This document shows, piece by piece, positions 26,581 to 61,283 of a stretch of 64,000 bases of DNA. Each line of letters begins with the position of its first letter. The first letter of the stretch is position 1. The DNA comes from Octopus sinensis. Its lineage: Eukaryota. The notes beneath the pieces were generated by a model. The model was not told where the DNA came from. It saw nothing but the letters and a program-made list of their open reading frames with translations, and ran no database searches. The translations under genes were made by a program, and so were the position numbers. The stretch spans positions 46,438,001-46,502,000 of the forward strand of contig NC_043009.1 of NCBI RefSeq assembly GCF_006345805.1. Reading direction: 5' to 3'.

Positions 26581-29500
26581 TAGAAGTTCATGTTGGTGTT
26601 ATGCCTAGGGTATCACATATTTGGTTTTGTACATTGTGTTGTTCTAGAGAATGTTTAATAAAACCATAAGAAAATGATGTGTTTGTTTTAAAACTTGGGA
26701 TTATATAGAAAGTATTTTGCGTAGGATATGGGCAGTTCCCATGAGCACTATCTTTTAAATTTCTGCCATTTTGGGGTTTGCTGGCATCTGAGCCAGGTAG
26801 CAATCAGCCCCTTTTGCTATCATTCTCAAGGCACCTATGACAACAGCTATTGTTTTAGTCTTCAGGTTCCACATTTTGCTAATTTCTATTTCAAGATATT
26901 TATACTTACTCAGTTTTTGGTAGGTCATGACAGATACATTCATATTGATTGGGACAGTCATATCAATGAGGAGGCATGATTTTTGTCTGAAGTCTTTCAA
27001 TATGATTTCTGGCCTATTTGCATCTATCTTTTTGTTAATTTGAATGGTGAAGTTCCAGAGGAGTGAGATGTGATCATTTTCAAGCACTGGAGGTAATTTG
27101 TGTTAACACCAGTTTTTATCATGCGGCAAGTCCAGGTTTTTGCAAATTACCCAGTGAATATATTGTGCAGCTCTATCATGCCTGTTGAGGTACTCTGTAG
27201 GCGCTAGAAGACTGCATTTGGAGACAACATGATCAATGGTTTCATTTTGTTGTCGGCATACACGACATGTTGGGCTACTGCCGTTCTTTAATATGTTGGC
27301 CTGGTAGTTTCTTGTTGGTAGGCATTGATCTTGAGCTGCTAAGATAAACCCTTCTGTTTCAGATTTTAAGCCAGAGGCCATTAGCAAATGATGGGTCAGG
27401 GCTTTGTCAATATCTGTATTATTCGCTCTCTTTGGGTATTTGCCATTTATCAGTCAGAATATCTAAGGCAGTAGTTTCTGCGCTTGTTTCTTGTATGTCT
27501 AATTCCGAAATTTGTTGTATTTGGAATTCACTTAGATATTTCTTTGCCTGCCTTGTCACTGAGTATGATACTTTCTTGTCTTCATGTTTTGAGATATGTT
27601 TTAAAATCCAGTCCTCAGAGTTTTTCAGGTAGGTGTCTAGGCCAATTGTAGCAATCTTCATTGTTAATGCCAGTTGTAAAACTCCACGACCTCCCTCTTT
27701 TCTTGGCAGATAAAGTCGTTCTATGTCCGCCTTGGGTGGTGCATTCTATGCAACGTCAATAGTTTTCCTATTTTTCTGTCAAGATTACATATTTCAGTAA
27801 TTGACCAGTTAATGATATTGAAACTGTAAGTCACGGCTGGTATGGCTAAAGCATTGATCGCTTCGATCCTGTTTATTGCATTCACCTCTGTCTTAAGTAT
27901 TGTTCTCACCCTGCGATAACAGTCTCTCCTGATCATTTCCTTCATCACTGAATGCCTGATTCCGTCCCCTTCAAGTAACCCTAGGTATTTGTAGCTCTCC
28001 GCTGGTTCTAACTCTTTTATGACATTCTGTTCATCAAGGTTAACGTTTGAAGTTTCTGTCATTTTTCCTTTAATAAAGGTAGCTTTTAAACATTTATCGA
28101 GGCCAAATTGCATTCTGATATCATCACTAAATTGTTTAACAATCGCTAGTAAGCCCTTGAGTTGTTGGTCATTTTTTACAAAGAGCTTTAAATCATCCAT
28201 GTAAATGAGATGATTTATATTTTTATCAAACACTTTATAACCTCATTGTGCATCATTGAGCAATTTTGAGAGAGATATTAAGGCTAGACAAAAGAGGGGT
28301 GGTGGTAGTGAGTCACATTGGAAAATGCCACATGAAATTTAAATTTTTACATCTCCAGCATTTAGAGATTCATTGTCACTGTTGAAAGTCAGTGTGGTTC
28401 TCCATGATCTCATACTTACTGACAAAAAGTTTCACAGAGTATGCACTATTGTATACATTTCCAGACATTTCTTAATCCAGCTATGTGGTAGGCAATCAAA
28501 ACCTTTTTTTTATATTCTATCCAGGCTATTGACAAGTTTTTGTGTCGTTTGTGACAATCTTTTAAGATCATCTTATTGATGAGTAGATAATCTTTACAAC
28601 CTTAGGATTCAAGTTTACATCCTTTTTGCTCATTGGGGAATATGCTGCTTTCTATTAAAAAAAAACTATAGGTATATTCAGTCAGGACAGATATTAGCAT
28701 TTTATACATTGCTAAGCAGGTTATGGGTTTATAATTTTTTACTTCATTTGTTTCTTCATTTTATGGAAGCAGGAATGTTAAACCATTAACTAGCCAAGAG
28801 GGCATTATACTAGGATGTTGCAAAACAACGTTGTAAAGTTCTGTTAGCAGTCCATGGCTCTCTGGGAAGGCATTCAACCAGAAGTTAGGAATTTTACTCT
28901 TTTCTGAAGACTTCCATTTGCTTGACCTCCTGAGAGCAGATCTTATATCTTCTACCTTGACACCCTCTCACTTTTGCTCCTCTAAGGAGTCTAAGTCTGT
29001 AGATATTCTATCAATCCAAGGGACCTTCTAATTGTGTGCTTTTTCTTCTGCCCAAATTTTATTCCAAAATCCCTGCACTGCTTCTTTTGATGGGACAGAC
29101 TTTACTGTAACTGGTGTTTTCACTATCTTTCTGTTATAATTTTTGGGGTTATTTTTGAACATGTTGTTGTCGTTGAAGAATCTAATGCGCTTTTCATACC
29201 TTGCTAAGCAGGCAGCTTTATCACATGCCTTTTGCTTGATGGTTTCCATGGTGGCATCAATGTCAAGTATGCTTTTCATATTATATTTTTTCTTTAATTT
29301 TCGAGTTTTTGTAGGTTTGGTATTCTTGCCAAACTTAGGGTTTTTCAAACATTCTATGTTAGACCTAAGTAGCTTAATTTGGTGTTGAATACGCTCTTGC
29401 CAAGAAGGCTTTTGTGGGAATGTTACCGTTTTCTAATCTTTTCACCACATAGAACCGTTGAGATTTTCGCGGATGCATAGTACAGGTGGTTGAGATCTGT

Positions 29501-32929: not shown

Positions 32930-34315
32930 TACGGAAGAACCAGTTAAATTGCTCGGGGTTTGGTTTGGTCCGGACCTCCAGGTAGACATAAATAGGGGGA
33001 GGTAACGAGCAGGGTAGCCAGTCTAATCTAGAATTGGGCAGATTCCCCCTGAAGGATCGGGCGGAGATGGCGAATGCATACATCGTTTCCATCATCTTCT
33101 ACCACCTGACCGTCGTCCCTTGCCCTCCTTTATGGCTGCCCAAGCTGGAGCGCTAGCTCTTCCGCTTTCTGTGGAAGGATCGTGTTCCACGCATCAAACG
33201 GTCCATCTGCTATCAAGAGCCGCTGAGTGGAAGAATGACCATGCCGTGGTTAATGATGCGTAGACACGCGATGAGGCTACAGCACATCCAGCACTTTCAT
33301 CACAATGAACAGGTGTAGTTACCGTATGTCAAGCAGGATTTTTCGAAGCTCGTTTCATTGACAGAGCTACAGTCTTGGATCAATCGTAGACCAAAAAAGA
33401 GCACGTAGCACCTGAAGTGTCGGTAAGCACTCACAGCTTTCAGCCAGTCGGGCAACACGGTTGGTGGAGGTTCCACCATGGAGTTCTATAAGGGATTAGT
33501 GGCGCGAAAGAGCGACGACGTCCTCGGGGAAATTTTGGGCGTTGGGAAGGATCGATTAACTGGTCTTTTCCGGTCTGGGGCCTATGGATGGCTTCCAGAA
33601 ATCCCTGGCCTGGCAGTGCTGCCGTGGAGCTCTACCGGTTCGAGACAAACTCTGTAGGCAAGCTCTACCTGTTCAGTGTCCGTGCATTACTGACCTGTGG
33701 AACTTTGTCAAACAGCTGTTATCATGGTTAGGACGGATCCGGTTATCAGCTGAGTCCATCGTGAAGATCGCCCCGTCGCCCTCCTTTGGCCGGGAAAGAA
33801 AGGTAGTTTTTCCTCTGTCTGCGGGCTACGGCGAAGAAGGTAGTGTGATGGACGAGATTGAAAGGCTGAAGAGAGATACTTTCCTCTTCGGCAAAGCCCA
33901 CATTCACTATTTCAAAGTCCGACTGAAAAGGAAAGTGACAGCTGAGAGGGAAGTTTTACCCCCCAATAAATTTGCCGAAAGATGGGTGCGTGTGGAGAGG
34001 ATGGCCCGTATGAATGGGCCTACTCTGAACTTTCGTTTGTAAACCGGGGGAGTTGAGGAGAGAGGTGCCTACTGAGGTGCATCTGGAGGTCGGGATAACC
34101 AGAATGTGTGGGGCTCTTCGGTTGTCTCAGCGAAGAACTTACCCCTTTTGTGAAATTCTGTTGTTGAATTGTATTGTTGTCATTGTTATTTTATTGCTTA
34201 CTCGATGTTTGTGTTAAACCCCATGTGTCCCCAGGTTCGTATTGTCTCTGTTTTGTATTCGGCCCTTTTGACCAATAAAGAAACGATTATATTATTATTA
34301 TTATTATTATTATTA
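32930..34315 (+). mobile_element. Tx1-like LINE 3' portion (post-RT and zinc finger)
   Basis: EEPVKLLGVWFGPDLQ, LFRFLWKD, MDGFQKSLAWQCCRGALPVRDKL, aataaagaaacgattat tail. Confidence 0.85.
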
Positions 34316-55767: not shown

Positions 55768-56203
55768 AGACGGCTTGCTGGCAGAAACGTTAGCAAGTCG
55801 GACGAAATGCTTAGCGGCATTTCGTCTGTCTTTACGTTCAGAGTTCAAATTCCACTGAGGTAGACGTTGCCTTTCATCATTTCGGGGTCGATAAATTAAA
55901 TACCAGTTGCGTACTGGGTCAATCTAATTGACTAGCCTCCTCAACAAAAATTTCGGGCTGTGTGCCTTGAGTAGAAAAGATTATTAAAGGTGGCAAACTG
56001 GCAGAAACTTTAGCAAGCCGGGGGAAATGCTTAGCAATATTTCGTCTGTCTTTATGTTCTGAGTTCAAATTCCGCCGAGGTCGACTTTGCCTTTCATCCT
56101 TACGTGTCGATAAATTAAGAACTAGTTGCGTACTACAGTCAATCTAAACGACTAGCTACCTCCCCAAAAATTACGAGCCTTGTGCCTAGAGTAGAATAGA
56201 ACA
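55768..56203 (+). mobile_element. Head-to-tail dimer of SINE family B
   Basis: Two consecutive copies, 55768-55985 and 55987-56203. Confidence 0.85.
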
Positions 56204-56465
56204 TTAATGTATGTTACATTGCAAATTTTTAAAATTGTAAAAGATACAAAATGCAAAAATAATATGTGAAAAATCAGGCTAAGTACGAATTTTAGAAACT
56301 TATCTATCCACAAACGCACACACGCACACACACACGCCCACACACACACACACGTCCACACACACACACACACGTCCAAACACACACACACACACATATA
56401 TATATATATTACGGAGATGTACTTGCATAGCAAGTGATTTGATCTGAGATCGTGTGTTGGAACGA

Positions 56466-56724
56466 AAACAATTGCGGGGTGGAAGGTGTTTGTTAAGCCA
56501 TTTAAGAAACACACAAAAGTCGTTCGATTCACTTCAACATTAAAGTTTAATTTGTCAAAATATTTTCGTCGCTATAAGACCGCGACCTGTTCACTGACAA
56601 AAAAATCCGTGTTGCATCTGAGCAGCAATATTTTCACAAATTAAACTTAAATGTTGAAGTGAATCGAACGGCTTTTGTGTGTTTCTTAAATGGCTTACAA
56701 ACACCCTCCACGCTGCAATTGTTT
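56466..56724. mobile_element. Inverted-repeat element (inverted pLTR-like) carrying the G3:C8 hammerhead
   Basis: 56466-56564 is the reverse complement of 56627-56724. Confidence 0.8.
56551..56601 (-). ncRNA. Hammerhead ribozyme variant with a swapped G3:C8 core pair
   Basis: Minus strand: TTTGTCA GTGAACA G GTCGC ggtcttata GCGAC GAAA ATAT TT TGACAAA; 7-bp stem I, 5-bp stem II, palindromic stem III. Confidence 0.72.
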
Positions 56725-56760
56725 ATATATATATAATTTAATTGAATAAGATAGAATCAA

Positions 56761-56991
56761 CAAGGAGTACGGTTAGACAGTTACTTAATAATCACTGAGT
56801 TGGATGTGTTAGCACCGAAGTCGAAGGTTTTGTAACTACAGCTACAGCAATTGTTTATCACATGAAGATATACAACTGGATCCCATTTTGAAGTAAGCCG
56901 TTGCATAGTTAAATTCCTGTATATATGAAGATCTATGTTGTATGGAAATATGTGCAGTGATTATACAATAACTGTCTAACTGTACTCCTTG
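56761..56991. mobile_element. ~230-bp element with ~37-bp inverted termini
   Basis: caaggagtacggttagacagtta...atcactg versus cagtgat...taactgtctaactgtactccttg. Confidence 0.7.
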
Positions 56992-57420
56992 GAAGTATAT
57001 CATAATACTACCGGCTATTTAGTAATTCTAAGGGTAAACGAGCTCTATTTTGTACTCTGCTACAATCCTAACGGAATACACCTTAGATATATATATATAA
57101 AGATACGGTTCATTGAATCTAATCAAGAAGGGTGATTGATTACTATTTCTAGAATGCAACAAACAAATCATTTGTCTCTATGCAGACGATTGCCAAATTA
57201 ATAAAAAAATTATCGTGAGTAGGTAAAACAACAATAATCAAACACCATGATGCTCATTTCTCTCTTAATATGTGCCGTGAGATTTGAACACTGTTGTATT
57301 TGAAAGAACACCGCTCTCTTCAGACGAGTGGGAGTCGAAAACGCTAAGAAGTGGTGCATGGCACTAGAATTTTCGACTCGAGTCAAATGTAGCACACTAC
57401 TCCAAATCTCGTTAAACTAA

Positions 57421-57782
57421 CAGCATAAGTGGAGTCAAGACCGGTGAGGTTGCACCGGCATCGAGTAGTAATGTAATAATGATTTATTTATATTAGCAAT
57501 TGTAATAATGAAATCATTTAATACGTACGTTTGCGTAATATATAATAAGAAATGCATTCATTATGTAAACCTTCCTCAGTTAAAAGATTTTTTAAATAAT
57601 TTTGAAATGCTTTAACTGATGAAGGTTTACATAATGGATGCATTTCCTATTATATATTATGCAAGCTTTAAACGTACGTTTTACCTGATTTCAAAATGTC
57701 ACTATCTGGTTTGACTTCATTATCACAACTAATAGGTCTAGATGTCAGTGCAAGCTGGTCGGTCTTGACTCCAGTTATGCTG
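57421..57782. repeat. Fold-back / MITE-like palindrome
   Basis: Outer arms 57421-57462 and 57741-57782, and inner arms 57531-57584 and 57611-57664, are reverse complements. Confidence 0.8.
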
Positions 57783-58664
57783 GTACTGTAATAGCGACAA
57801 TTCTGGTACCTTGCACCGTTTCTCAGCATAACACGATTTATATATAACAAATCATGATAAACACAATCAGAATCTGATCTCTAAAAACCCGTGTTAATCC
57901 ATACACCCCAAATATTATTGAAACTTATTACACAATATACATGGATACAGCACCAGTCGTTGTTTATTCGAAACAGCTGTAAAGATACGACCTGATTACG
58001 GAGTTCTTTTATTATTTGTATATTCAGCTTCATGTGTAAATACACTATTAATGCCTACTTTTCTTCTCTTCCTCTACACACACACAAACACACACACGCA
58101 CATAACGCACACACGGTCATATATGTGTGTGTGAACTAAACCTTTCTCGACTAAAGCTTTGCAGCCTTGCGATCCTCAAGCGAGAATTGTTACAACTCAG
58201 TATTGGTGGTAGATTTATATCGTTTAATGCGTGTGTGTGGTTTAGTTTTTGTGATTCTTCATGGGTTTACGTTTCGCATTTATTTATCGGTGGGATGGGC
58301 TCTCTTCTCTGTAATCATTATTAAATATTTATGTTTTTTATTGTGTGAAGCGGTGTTCGTATTTCTTGCAATTGTTAGTGGGAGGGTGCGTTATTAATTT
58401 GTTTTATGATTGGTGAAAGAACATATTTTCATATTTTATTTTTTGTGCCTATATGTGTAGGTTGAATGTACGTTGGCAGATGTTAGTTGGAGAATAGTTG
58501 CTAATGAATGGGCTTAAATGTAAAACTATTTGGATACATACATATTGTGAGTAAATATATCCGTGATGGGGTGTAACTATACAAACAAATATACATGCAT
58601 ACACACATACACACACACATATATACGCATATATATATTCATATACACATGTATATATATATTG

Positions 58665-61283
58665 CAGGGACTTGCGTCTAGGTAGGCGAGGTCGGCAGTG
58701 CCTACCTTGAATAAAATAGATCAATAGCAGCAGTTTCCTTTTATGGCAAACTATACACTTAATTCAATAAAATTATGAAGGTTACTCTGATTACTATGCA
58801 TAAAATATAAAATCTTTTTTTGTAGATTAGATAGGTATAATTCTCCCCTGCCTTTGAATCTCATTATTTAAGCTACGCATGGTATTGCTGAAGTACACGT
58901 GTCATGTGCACTCCTACAGCACTGCTTTCTAACCGTGCTATAAAGGCAGAAGTAAATCTGCCTCCAGCTCAGTCACGCGCCTGTGTTTCGCATATTTTTC
59001 GTGTGTTTTACTTTCAGTTTTAGCTCATTTCCATTTATTTATATTTTTCCCCATTTCCAGCAATGGATAGTGACTATCCTAAGACATTTTCAAAACTAGC
59101 TTATGAAGAAAAATGACAAATTATTTAAAAAATGGTAGACCAACACCAGAACTTGAGGACCTAAAACAACAGAAAAGGACAAAAATCATTAGAACATTTC
59201 AAACCACTTGGTGCAGCAAGAAGAATGGTTGTGGGGCTGTACTACAAGAAAAATGCATTTTTTGTTAAGCATGTTTGCTATTTTCTGTATCTAGTGTAAG
59301 TTTGTAGGTAAAAGAAGAATATTGTGATTTAAATAATTTGCCCAATGCTTTAAGTAAACACGAACGATCAGCAGAACATTATAGAAGCCAAATATTGAAA
59401 ATATTAGGATCTACGCAAATCGACTTACTCTTAGACAAACATAAGTCTGTCAGCATTGAAGTTCACAATAAAAAGGTTAAAGAGCACAGATATATTTTTA
59501 AAAAATAATTTCTGCTACTCGTTTCTTGAGTAAACGTGAACTTACTTTTCACAGAGATAATGAACAGAAATCATCGTTAAATTGCGAAAGCTATGTTGAG
59601 TTACTGAACTATACTGCAAGATTTGATAAGAAATTGGCATAACATTTACAGAATTCATCAGTTTTTTTCTGGTCTTTATAATAAAATACAAAATGACTTG
59701 ATAGAAGCAGTAGGCACGATCATAGAAAATAATATTAAAGAAGTCGCACAAACCTCGTTCATTACCATAGACGTAGATAAAACGACTAATATTTCATGTA
59801 CAATTCAATGTTCTACAGTATTGAGGTACATGTTGGACTCTGATATCGAAGAAATCTTTATAGGATTTGACATTCTTAAGGACAAATCTGTTGGAGGTGT
59901 AACAGAGTGTACATTTAATAATTTGGATAAATACGACTGTTGTGAGAAACTTGTATCACAGACGTACGATGGGGCAATAGTGATGGCATCCAGTTTAAAT
60001 GGTGTTCAATTTAAAGTAAGAGAAAGGGCATCAGCAGCTTTATTTATTCACTGCTATGCTCATAAGCTAAATCTTGTTCTATATCAGTCAATAAAATTCA
60101 TTCCTGAATGTACAAGCTTTTTCAAGACCAATGAGGCATTTGCCTCAATTTTCCATCACTCTACAAAGCAAACGTAACTTCTTGAAAAGGCAATCTTACG
60201 AGATGGAGTTCGAATTCAAAACTAATCCAGACTATTTTACAATACTGTTGTGACCTTTGCAAACTCTTCAACAGTATGAACAATGATCCTATGGTGTGGG
60301 ATCCAGATACTTTAGTGCGAAGCAATGGGTTTTATGAGTGGCTAACAAAAGACTCAACGTACTTTTTTCTGATGGTTTATAATGAAATTTTCATTAACTC
60401 TGACACTCTTTTTAATCTCTTACAAACCAAAATGATAGACATTTCATACTGCATTGAGAGGATTAATGGGATAATAAATTTATTTGAGAATCTACACAAA
60501 ATTTCGAGGATTTGTATGTAAAGTTTGTAGAATGTTACAGAGAAAATAACTTAATTAAATCAAATTCTCGTGCGAAAGGTTCAGTTAAAGAATAAAGAAT
60601 GGGAATATTTGGAGTAATTTTGGATGACATACTGATGAACATGAAAGTAGGATTTGCTGATTTCAAAAAGTTCATTTCATTAGTTCATGAAAATAAATTT
60701 TAAGATCTTGCTTGCCAAGTTGATAAGGATGCATTTGAAAGTTTAGAAAAGAACGATGGAAAAATTTTCGACGACATAAGACTGAAAGCGGATTTAGCGG
60801 GAATTTACAATGCACGAGTGTTTCGAGATAAATCCGTTAAAAATTTGCTTGATTCTATATTTGGAAATAAACTGACACAGACGTTCCTCGAAGCTGTGAA
60901 GTTGCTGTAATTAATCTTAACAGTTCCTGTTATAACTGTTTTTGTGAAGAGGTCGTTTTCTTCTTTCAGAAGAATTAAGAGCTACACTAGGAACAGAATG
61001 ACAAATCGAAGGCTTTTGTTACTTGCTTTAATATCCATTGAAAAAGAAAGACTTAACAAAATGGGGAAATACCCTACTTTCAATTTCTACGAAAAAGTAA
61101 TTGATATTTTTGCTACAAAGAAAGCGAGAAGAATGCATTTCCTGTACAAATAGGCTAATATAATTGGGAAGTAAACATTTTAAATATTTTATCCTTCTAT
61201 ATACTAACAAATCTGTTGATGATAGTTTACTACATAAATGTCACCAATTGTCTACCCTGAGAAATTTTGACGGCACGTGCCTG
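58665..61283 (+). mobile_element. Full-length decayed hAT DNA transposon (ZMYM1/DUF4371-like transposase pseudogene)
   Basis: NKIQNDLI, FITIDVDKTTNIS, SQTYDGAIVM, FIHCYAHKLNL, and the hATC motif KRSFSSFRRIKSYTRNRM..RL..LALISIE; TIRs cagggacttgcgtc / gacggcacgtgcctg. Confidence 0.9.

Follow-up and report, generated by a model that had tools for sequence, protein, structure and literature searches.

Can a natural hammerhead ribozyme carry G:C instead of C:G at core positions 3 and 8, or does such a core mark a motif in decay? The question is raised by a type I minimal hammerhead motif with a G3:C8 core pair, recognized from its sequence, its predicted fold and a scan that disregards positions 3 and 8, on the minus strand at 56551..56601 of a 64,000-nucleotide stretch of Octopus sinensis contig NC_043009.1 (the window, by which we mean that whole stretch). 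Read along the minus strand, the 5' strand of a 7-bp stem I (56601-56595) is followed by the core GUGAACA (56594-56588; G3 at 56594, C8 at 56589 and A9 at 56588), an extra G after A9 (56587), a 5-bp stem II (56586-56582 with 56572-56568, seen in sequence and fold), GAA (56567-56565), the palindrome AAUAUU (56564-56559), which could serve a dimer-type stem III, U17 (56558) and the 3' strand of stem I (56557-56551). By hammerhead numbering, cleavage is predicted 3' of U17, between 56558 and 56557.

RNAfold formed stems I and II on the motif (-13.8 kcal/mol, z -2.6, with 3 of 200 shuffles as good), and the minus-strand hammerhead architecture claimed by the initial annotation is borne out by both sequence and fold. 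The two stems surround the core with a G10.1:C11.1 closing pair, and U4, G5, A6, A9, G12, A13, A14, A15.1:U16.1 and H17 are in place. Where the CUGANGA consensus has C3 and G8, the motif has G3 and C8, and positions 3 and 8 are Watson-Crick paired as G:C. The AAUAUU sequence is self-complementary and its free duplex very weak (-0.2 kcal/mol). Rfam matched zero families across the whole window at the gathering score, and at E values up to 10 within 56400-56760 it returned zero hammerhead families and five weak non-hammerhead matches far below the gathering score; standard searches therefore do miss the G3:C8 form, as had been foreseen for CUGANGA-based ones. Cleavage at a UUU triplet is slow. 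The exact UUU triplet, which had been called unusual, is indeed rare (1 of 56 representatives), but U17 as such is common (24 of 56; our counts from the text of Fig. S3 of PMC4209133). The extra G after A9, once listed as a peculiarity, is instead a standard trait of Penelope-element hammerheads, as described in the same paper.

The motif lies in a high-copy repeat (56408-56724), the window copy of which consists of a sense arm and an inverted, truncated second arm between (TA)n tracts, one at 56392..56410 at the insertion boundary (no strand assigned) and the other after 56724; (TA)n is found at most boundaries of family copies. The sense arm (56408..56619, minus strand) is a pseudo-LTR (pLTR) with a tail, 90.6% identical over 212 nt to the 5' pLTR and ORF start of the full-length copy L261, and it ends at the family's long 3' end. 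Within it, the segment 56408..56501 (minus strand) holds the first codons of a reverse transcriptase (RT)-endonuclease ORF, with the AUG at 56501, 56 nt past the predicted cut, and continues in frame into the ORF in L127, L177 and L261. The tail of ~57 nt, present in the sense arm only (56408..56465, minus strand), matches the tail of Penelope-like elements (PLEs) described in PMC11167929 and PMC8557442. The second arm (56627..56724, plus strand; 94.9% over 98 nt) is a 5'-truncated pLTR copy running from a point slightly upstream of the predicted cut to the short 3' end of the family, whose copies terminate at either of two fixed points ~57 nt apart. Were the window copy transcribed through both arms, the predicted fold suggests that the inverted arm would likely pair with the 3' half of the motif and sequester it.

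In L261 the motif is found both before the ORF and ~1.1 kb after it. The family has an open reading frame of 1,042 codons, located upstream of the 3' motif, with the RT motif YVDD, a GIY-YIG domain at the cut-off of PF01541 and a pair of cysteines flanked by the GIY-like and YIG motifs; RVT_1 matched weakly, in a sister family from the same genome. A single ORF of RT and C-terminal GIY-YIG bearing CCHH, as in EN+ Penelope-like elements, occurs together with tandem pLTRs, inverted truncated copies and a tail at one end. By these marks, as described in PMC8557442 and PMC11167929, the element is a Penelope-like retrotransposon. Its clade is likely Neptune: the linker between RT and endonuclease, C-X3-C-X2-C, fits the CX2-5CxxC form common to the Neptune and Nematis clades (PMC8557442) and points to one or the other, judged by published description.

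Other accounts of the element and its core were rejected. Non-LTR retrozymes are tandem ORF-less monomers with canonical type I hammerheads, whereas the copies here are dispersed, often inverted, and derive from an ORF-bearing element. Coding constraint on the core is rejected because the ORF begins 56 nt after the cut, and a spliced short 5' exon because the sense strands of four long copies contain no donor site that would suit it.

Several further observations concern the copies and their surroundings. Short copies (e.g. L288, L294, L297, L426 and L440) begin sharply ~60 nt upstream of the cut, corresponding to window 56617-56619, and in 30 of 42 distinct junctions the base immediately preceding the common start is G in place of the parental C, against a background of 13%. 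Either a reverse-transcribed 5' cap marking where transcription starts or template switching at microhomologies would fit this G; the parent has a sequence resembling an intron end at this position. On contig C30 (11.1-12.5 Mb), tandem and inverted pLTR copies are clustered (L195-L200), with G8 and C8 cores mixed. MITE-like inverted repeats adjoin the element at window 56761-56991 and 57412-57791, the latter containing a nested inverted-repeat element at 57509-57693. A dispersed repeat of 220 bp, likely a SINE, occurs twice head-to-tail at 55778-56207, with more copies in the window and at other loci. Short open frames are present at 27721-28242 (-), 33560-34042 (+) and 59608-60177 (+), which we take to resemble pieces of non-LTR retroelements and of a hAT-like transposase.

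The initial annotation had proposed genomic copies as the check on whether GUGAACA is the consensus of its family, and the check came out in its favor. Genome-wide, 5,770 of 6,374 exact matches to a 19-base pattern (90.5%) carried G3:C8, compared with zero genome matches for the reversed pattern; these are counts of pattern matches in which inverted arms are scored separately, and not copy numbers. In one pattern frame across the genome, 384 matches had G3 with a base other than C at position 8, and 220 had a base other than G at position 3. Counted by hand, the first 100 of the 384 matches listed had G (43), T (40) or A (17) at position 8, and the first 100 of the 220 listed had A (55), T (28) or C (17) at position 3, with zero C3:G8 among the latter. 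An older-looking loop-II subfamily had 94 C8, 4 T8 and 2 G8 among the first 100 of 1,990 matches listed, and another subfamily 80 G3:C8 and 9 G8 among the first 100 of 197 listed. The RT tree separates a young from an older group, ~15% apart, and G3:C8 motifs occur in both. Contigs of the runs labelled organisms A, B, C and D listed no alternative letter at 5% at positions 3 and 8, a weak observation from a type of contig that cannot show RNA ends, strand or level. G3:C8 is thus the state of the family and prevails in every subfamily tested.

Related elements were compared at the same pair. Of 31 related loci from metagenome contigs, 13 extended past the ORF end by 187 nt or more and were used, one being kept of four near-identical loci; with the two families of the genome they gave 15 post-ORF windows. 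The blind scan, which ignores positions 3 and 8, detected a hammerhead at the corresponding position in 12 of the 15 (10 of the 13 metagenome loci and both genome families). All 12 top matches were Watson-Crick at 3:8, as C:G (7), U:A (4) or G:C (1), compared with 4 of 15 comparable matches in the shuffled control, drawn from 450 shuffles. The three other loci lacked a blind-scan motif, and one of them, L165, has a degenerate motif by eye. One core base was missing in 2 of the 12 motifs; the extra nucleotide after A9 was G in 10 of 12, and U17 was likewise present in 10 of 12. A strict scan, which itself required the 3:8 pair, matched 6 of the 13 loci against 0.05 expected. A PDB search returned zero matches, and viral contigs one, weak. 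Among these relatives, L147 combines C9 with U3:A8, C9 being another departure that CUGANGA searches miss, and L148:4590 has a hammerhead with U15.1:A16.1, a rare variant described in PMC3088659.

U3:A8 is dispersed across a tree with poorly supported inner branches, where it may stand for one or several independent swaps, and G3:C8 arose once in the sample, in which the nearest outgroups are represented by the sister family only. That family (L129-L140), at ~57% RT identity (UFBoot 100), has an open ORF of more than 1,000 codons and a C3:G8 core, with C at position 9 in 15 of the 15 motif copies printed. It agrees with the G3:C8 family at 4 of 5 bases in stem II and at 8 of 9 in the comparison of stem II and GAAA. 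The flanks show little of this: the upstream 60 nt are 14/60 identical, which is chance level, 13 of 300 shuffles match or exceed the score of the upstream 100 nt, and for the downstream 100 nt the alignment does not surpass that of shuffles. C3:G8 is likely the ancestral state and, since the sister family has C3:G8 and stem II is conserved between unrelated flanks, the swap is likely a selected covariation. The earlier preference for covariation over decay is therefore supported by 12 of 12 Watson-Crick pairs of three types in a scan that did not look at the pair.

Two further sets of observations, the mismatched minority and the ends of the copies, count against a strict requirement for cleavage. 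G3·G8 is in excess among the matches listed (43/100 G among non-C8 against 17/100 C among non-G3; Fisher p 1e-4) and, within these matches, about four times commoner than the mirror-image change predicts. Among the 43 G3·G8 copies examined, about seven at separate loci have a common second, private change in stem I, from which it follows that some mismatched sources likely transposed. A few of the 43 have G8 in both arms; further copies carry C8 in the partner arm and resemble recurrent changes. G3·G8 as an ancestral intermediate is unsupported, because G3:C8 is the majority in both older-looking subfamilies and G8 appears on several backgrounds, although some G3·G8 copies may be relics. In upstream pLTRs joined to the ORF (L256-L259, L371 and L376), G3·G8 accounts for ~3 of 11 independent cases compared with ~2.6% genome-wide, and L257 has G8 in its upstream and C8 in its downstream pLTR. 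This enrichment, small and noticed post hoc, may be what selection for uncut 5' ends would give.

The 5' ends were compiled from 101 distinct copies, a few of them segmental duplicates, that had been selected with a pattern lying 3' of the cut. Relative to the predicted cut, 67 start 43-66 nt upstream and 4 are more distant still on that side; the start falls within the motif in 19 and downstream in 10, and a single copy starts no more than 3 nt from the cut. With 1 of 101 copies near the predicted site, the 5' ends show no genomic footprint of cleavage, and since most copies start upstream of the cut, uncut RNA was the template of the inserted copies. Cleavage, if it takes place, would consequently be slow or conditional.

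Considering the sequence evidence as a whole, we think the motif is probably a slow, dimer- or protein-assisted self-cleaving hammerhead in which C3:G8 was replaced by G3:C8, likely kept by selection. The element RNA would begin ~60 nt upstream of the cut, with one motif per pLTR, and two motifs might join through AAUAUU, building stem III. The G3:C8 pair would then position the 2'-OH of residue 8 as C3:G8 does, G12 would act as the base, and the chain would be cut after U17. Such cleavage could trim tandem read-through transcripts or strip the leader from the ORF RNA, insertion ends being made otherwise. The catalytic roles of G12 and of the residue 8 2'-OH are described in PMC8495972. In a PLE hammerhead, single changes at position 3 or 8 abolish cleavage and C3G/G8C "partially restores" it (PMC11167929), the same wording being used in the accessible text of PMC8495972; the initial annotation, which spoke of substantial activity, had the direction right and the extent overstated. 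Cleavage by the Anolis element ribozyme depends on the element's protein, is not required for insertion in vitro and gave no RNA-seq ends at the cut (PMC11167929). The C9 of the sister family and the U15.1:A16.1 of one relative imply that the clade tolerates core departures, which counts against the ribozyme reading.

The same uncut copies could also result if the hammerhead fold, the 3:8 pair included, were kept as a structural signal with little or no cleavage in vivo, for protein binding, RNA folding, or the control of translation or reverse transcription. That G3·G8 sources likely transposed, that PLE minimal hammerheads have low activity in vitro by the authors' own caveat (PMC4209133), and that insertion proceeds in vitro without cleavage (PMC11167929) all speak for a signal of this kind. 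We nevertheless hold it to be unlikely, because the 3:8 pair is part of the active-site conformation (PMC3884650) and because U4, G5, A6, G12, A13, A14, G10.1 and the 15.1:16.1 pair are kept together in elements whose proteins are 26-55% alike.

If the ribozyme had died in the ancestor of the family, two drifted core changes would have become complementary by luck and hitchhiked on an element with no need of the ribozyme. Chance alone makes one-third of double changes at these two positions Watson-Crick; the single origin of G3:C8 in the sample and the persistence of a G3·G8 minority would fit. Yet similarity to the sister family has been lost in the flanks and retained in stem II, core and GAAA, and subfamilies ~15% apart in the ORF differ in loop II while retaining both stems and the core, making this course of events rather improbable. 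As for a chance look-alike in a MITE-like DNA element with long terminal inverted repeats, suggested by the window copy being a 100-bp inverted repeat around a short spacer, it is hardly credible and the reading is already refuted: the arms are cut at varying points, there are two fixed ends, long copies bear an RT/GIY-YIG ORF, and relatives have canonical hammerheads at the same place.

Beyond the slow self-cleaving hammerhead that we favor, it is a tentative and rather doubtful proposition, drawn from sequence comparison, that the G3:C8 family is active in vivo and would be the first natural one genome-wide, in a clade that may have sampled three Watson-Crick states at 3:8. In that case the G3·G8 minority would offer a single-mismatch control made by nature, and its apparent excess in upstream pLTRs would be the trace of selection for uncut RNA at the time of insertion. 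The ribozyme reading itself, if true, would give natural proof that the hammerhead 3:8 pair can be G:C. Descriptor and Rfam searches have a blind spot for a family of thousands of copies, and claims of hammerhead-free Penelope clades may accordingly need a recheck based on pairing. The role of hammerheads in Penelope elements is an open question that becomes testable in one genome, as the same genome holds the 1,042-codon ORF, the C3:G8 sister family, and natural paired and mismatched forms. Lunse et al. reportedly listed ~150,000 PLE-associated variants in 2017. The natural G3:C8 form may be without published precedent, none having been found in a search that covered literature other than Lunse et al. 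2017, figure panels and supplement 1 of PMC4209133. In the accessible text, G3:C8 appears only in engineered uses (PMC11167929, PMC8495972 and PMC3884650), and a natural form is unnamed in the corresponding parts of PMC6155905, PMC7229834, PMC6765202, PMC2837043 and bioRxiv 10.64898/2026.07.22.740005.

Four known systems are closest to the present family. The minimal hammerheads of PLEs described by Cervera and de la Pena in 2014 (PMC4209133) are likewise type I and located in pLTRs, with the extra nucleotide between A9 and G10.1, a G10.1:C11.1 pair, a palindromic, unstable stem III and frequent U17, and they too occur in thousands of solo and inverted copies. They differ in the core pair: by our count of Fig. 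S3, 0 of 56 representatives have G3 (53 C3:G8, 2 U3:A8 and 1 U3·G8), and the descriptors given there could not have found it. Natural U3:A8, reported by Perreault in 2011 (PMC3088659) and in Cercyon of S. mansoni (PMC4209133), and found in the blind scan in 4 relatives of the present element, is likewise a double change that keeps the 3:8 pair; it takes two transitions with a possible U·G wobble intermediate, whereas G3:C8 takes two transversions and must pass by way of a G·G or C·C mismatch. Neptune and Nematis elements (PMC8557442) likewise have a C-terminal GIY-YIG with CCHH, a CX2-5CxxC linker and a DKG-type motif, as well as (TA)n targets, a tail and inverted copies. A further counterpart is the engineered C3G/G8C form of Anolis Poseidon (PAc; PMC11167929), an identical pair swap in the same class of element with partial rescue. 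The PAc ORF begins inside the ribozyme, whereas that of the present element begins 56 nt after the cut, and the swap engineered in PAc is here natural and fixed across a family of thousands of copies.
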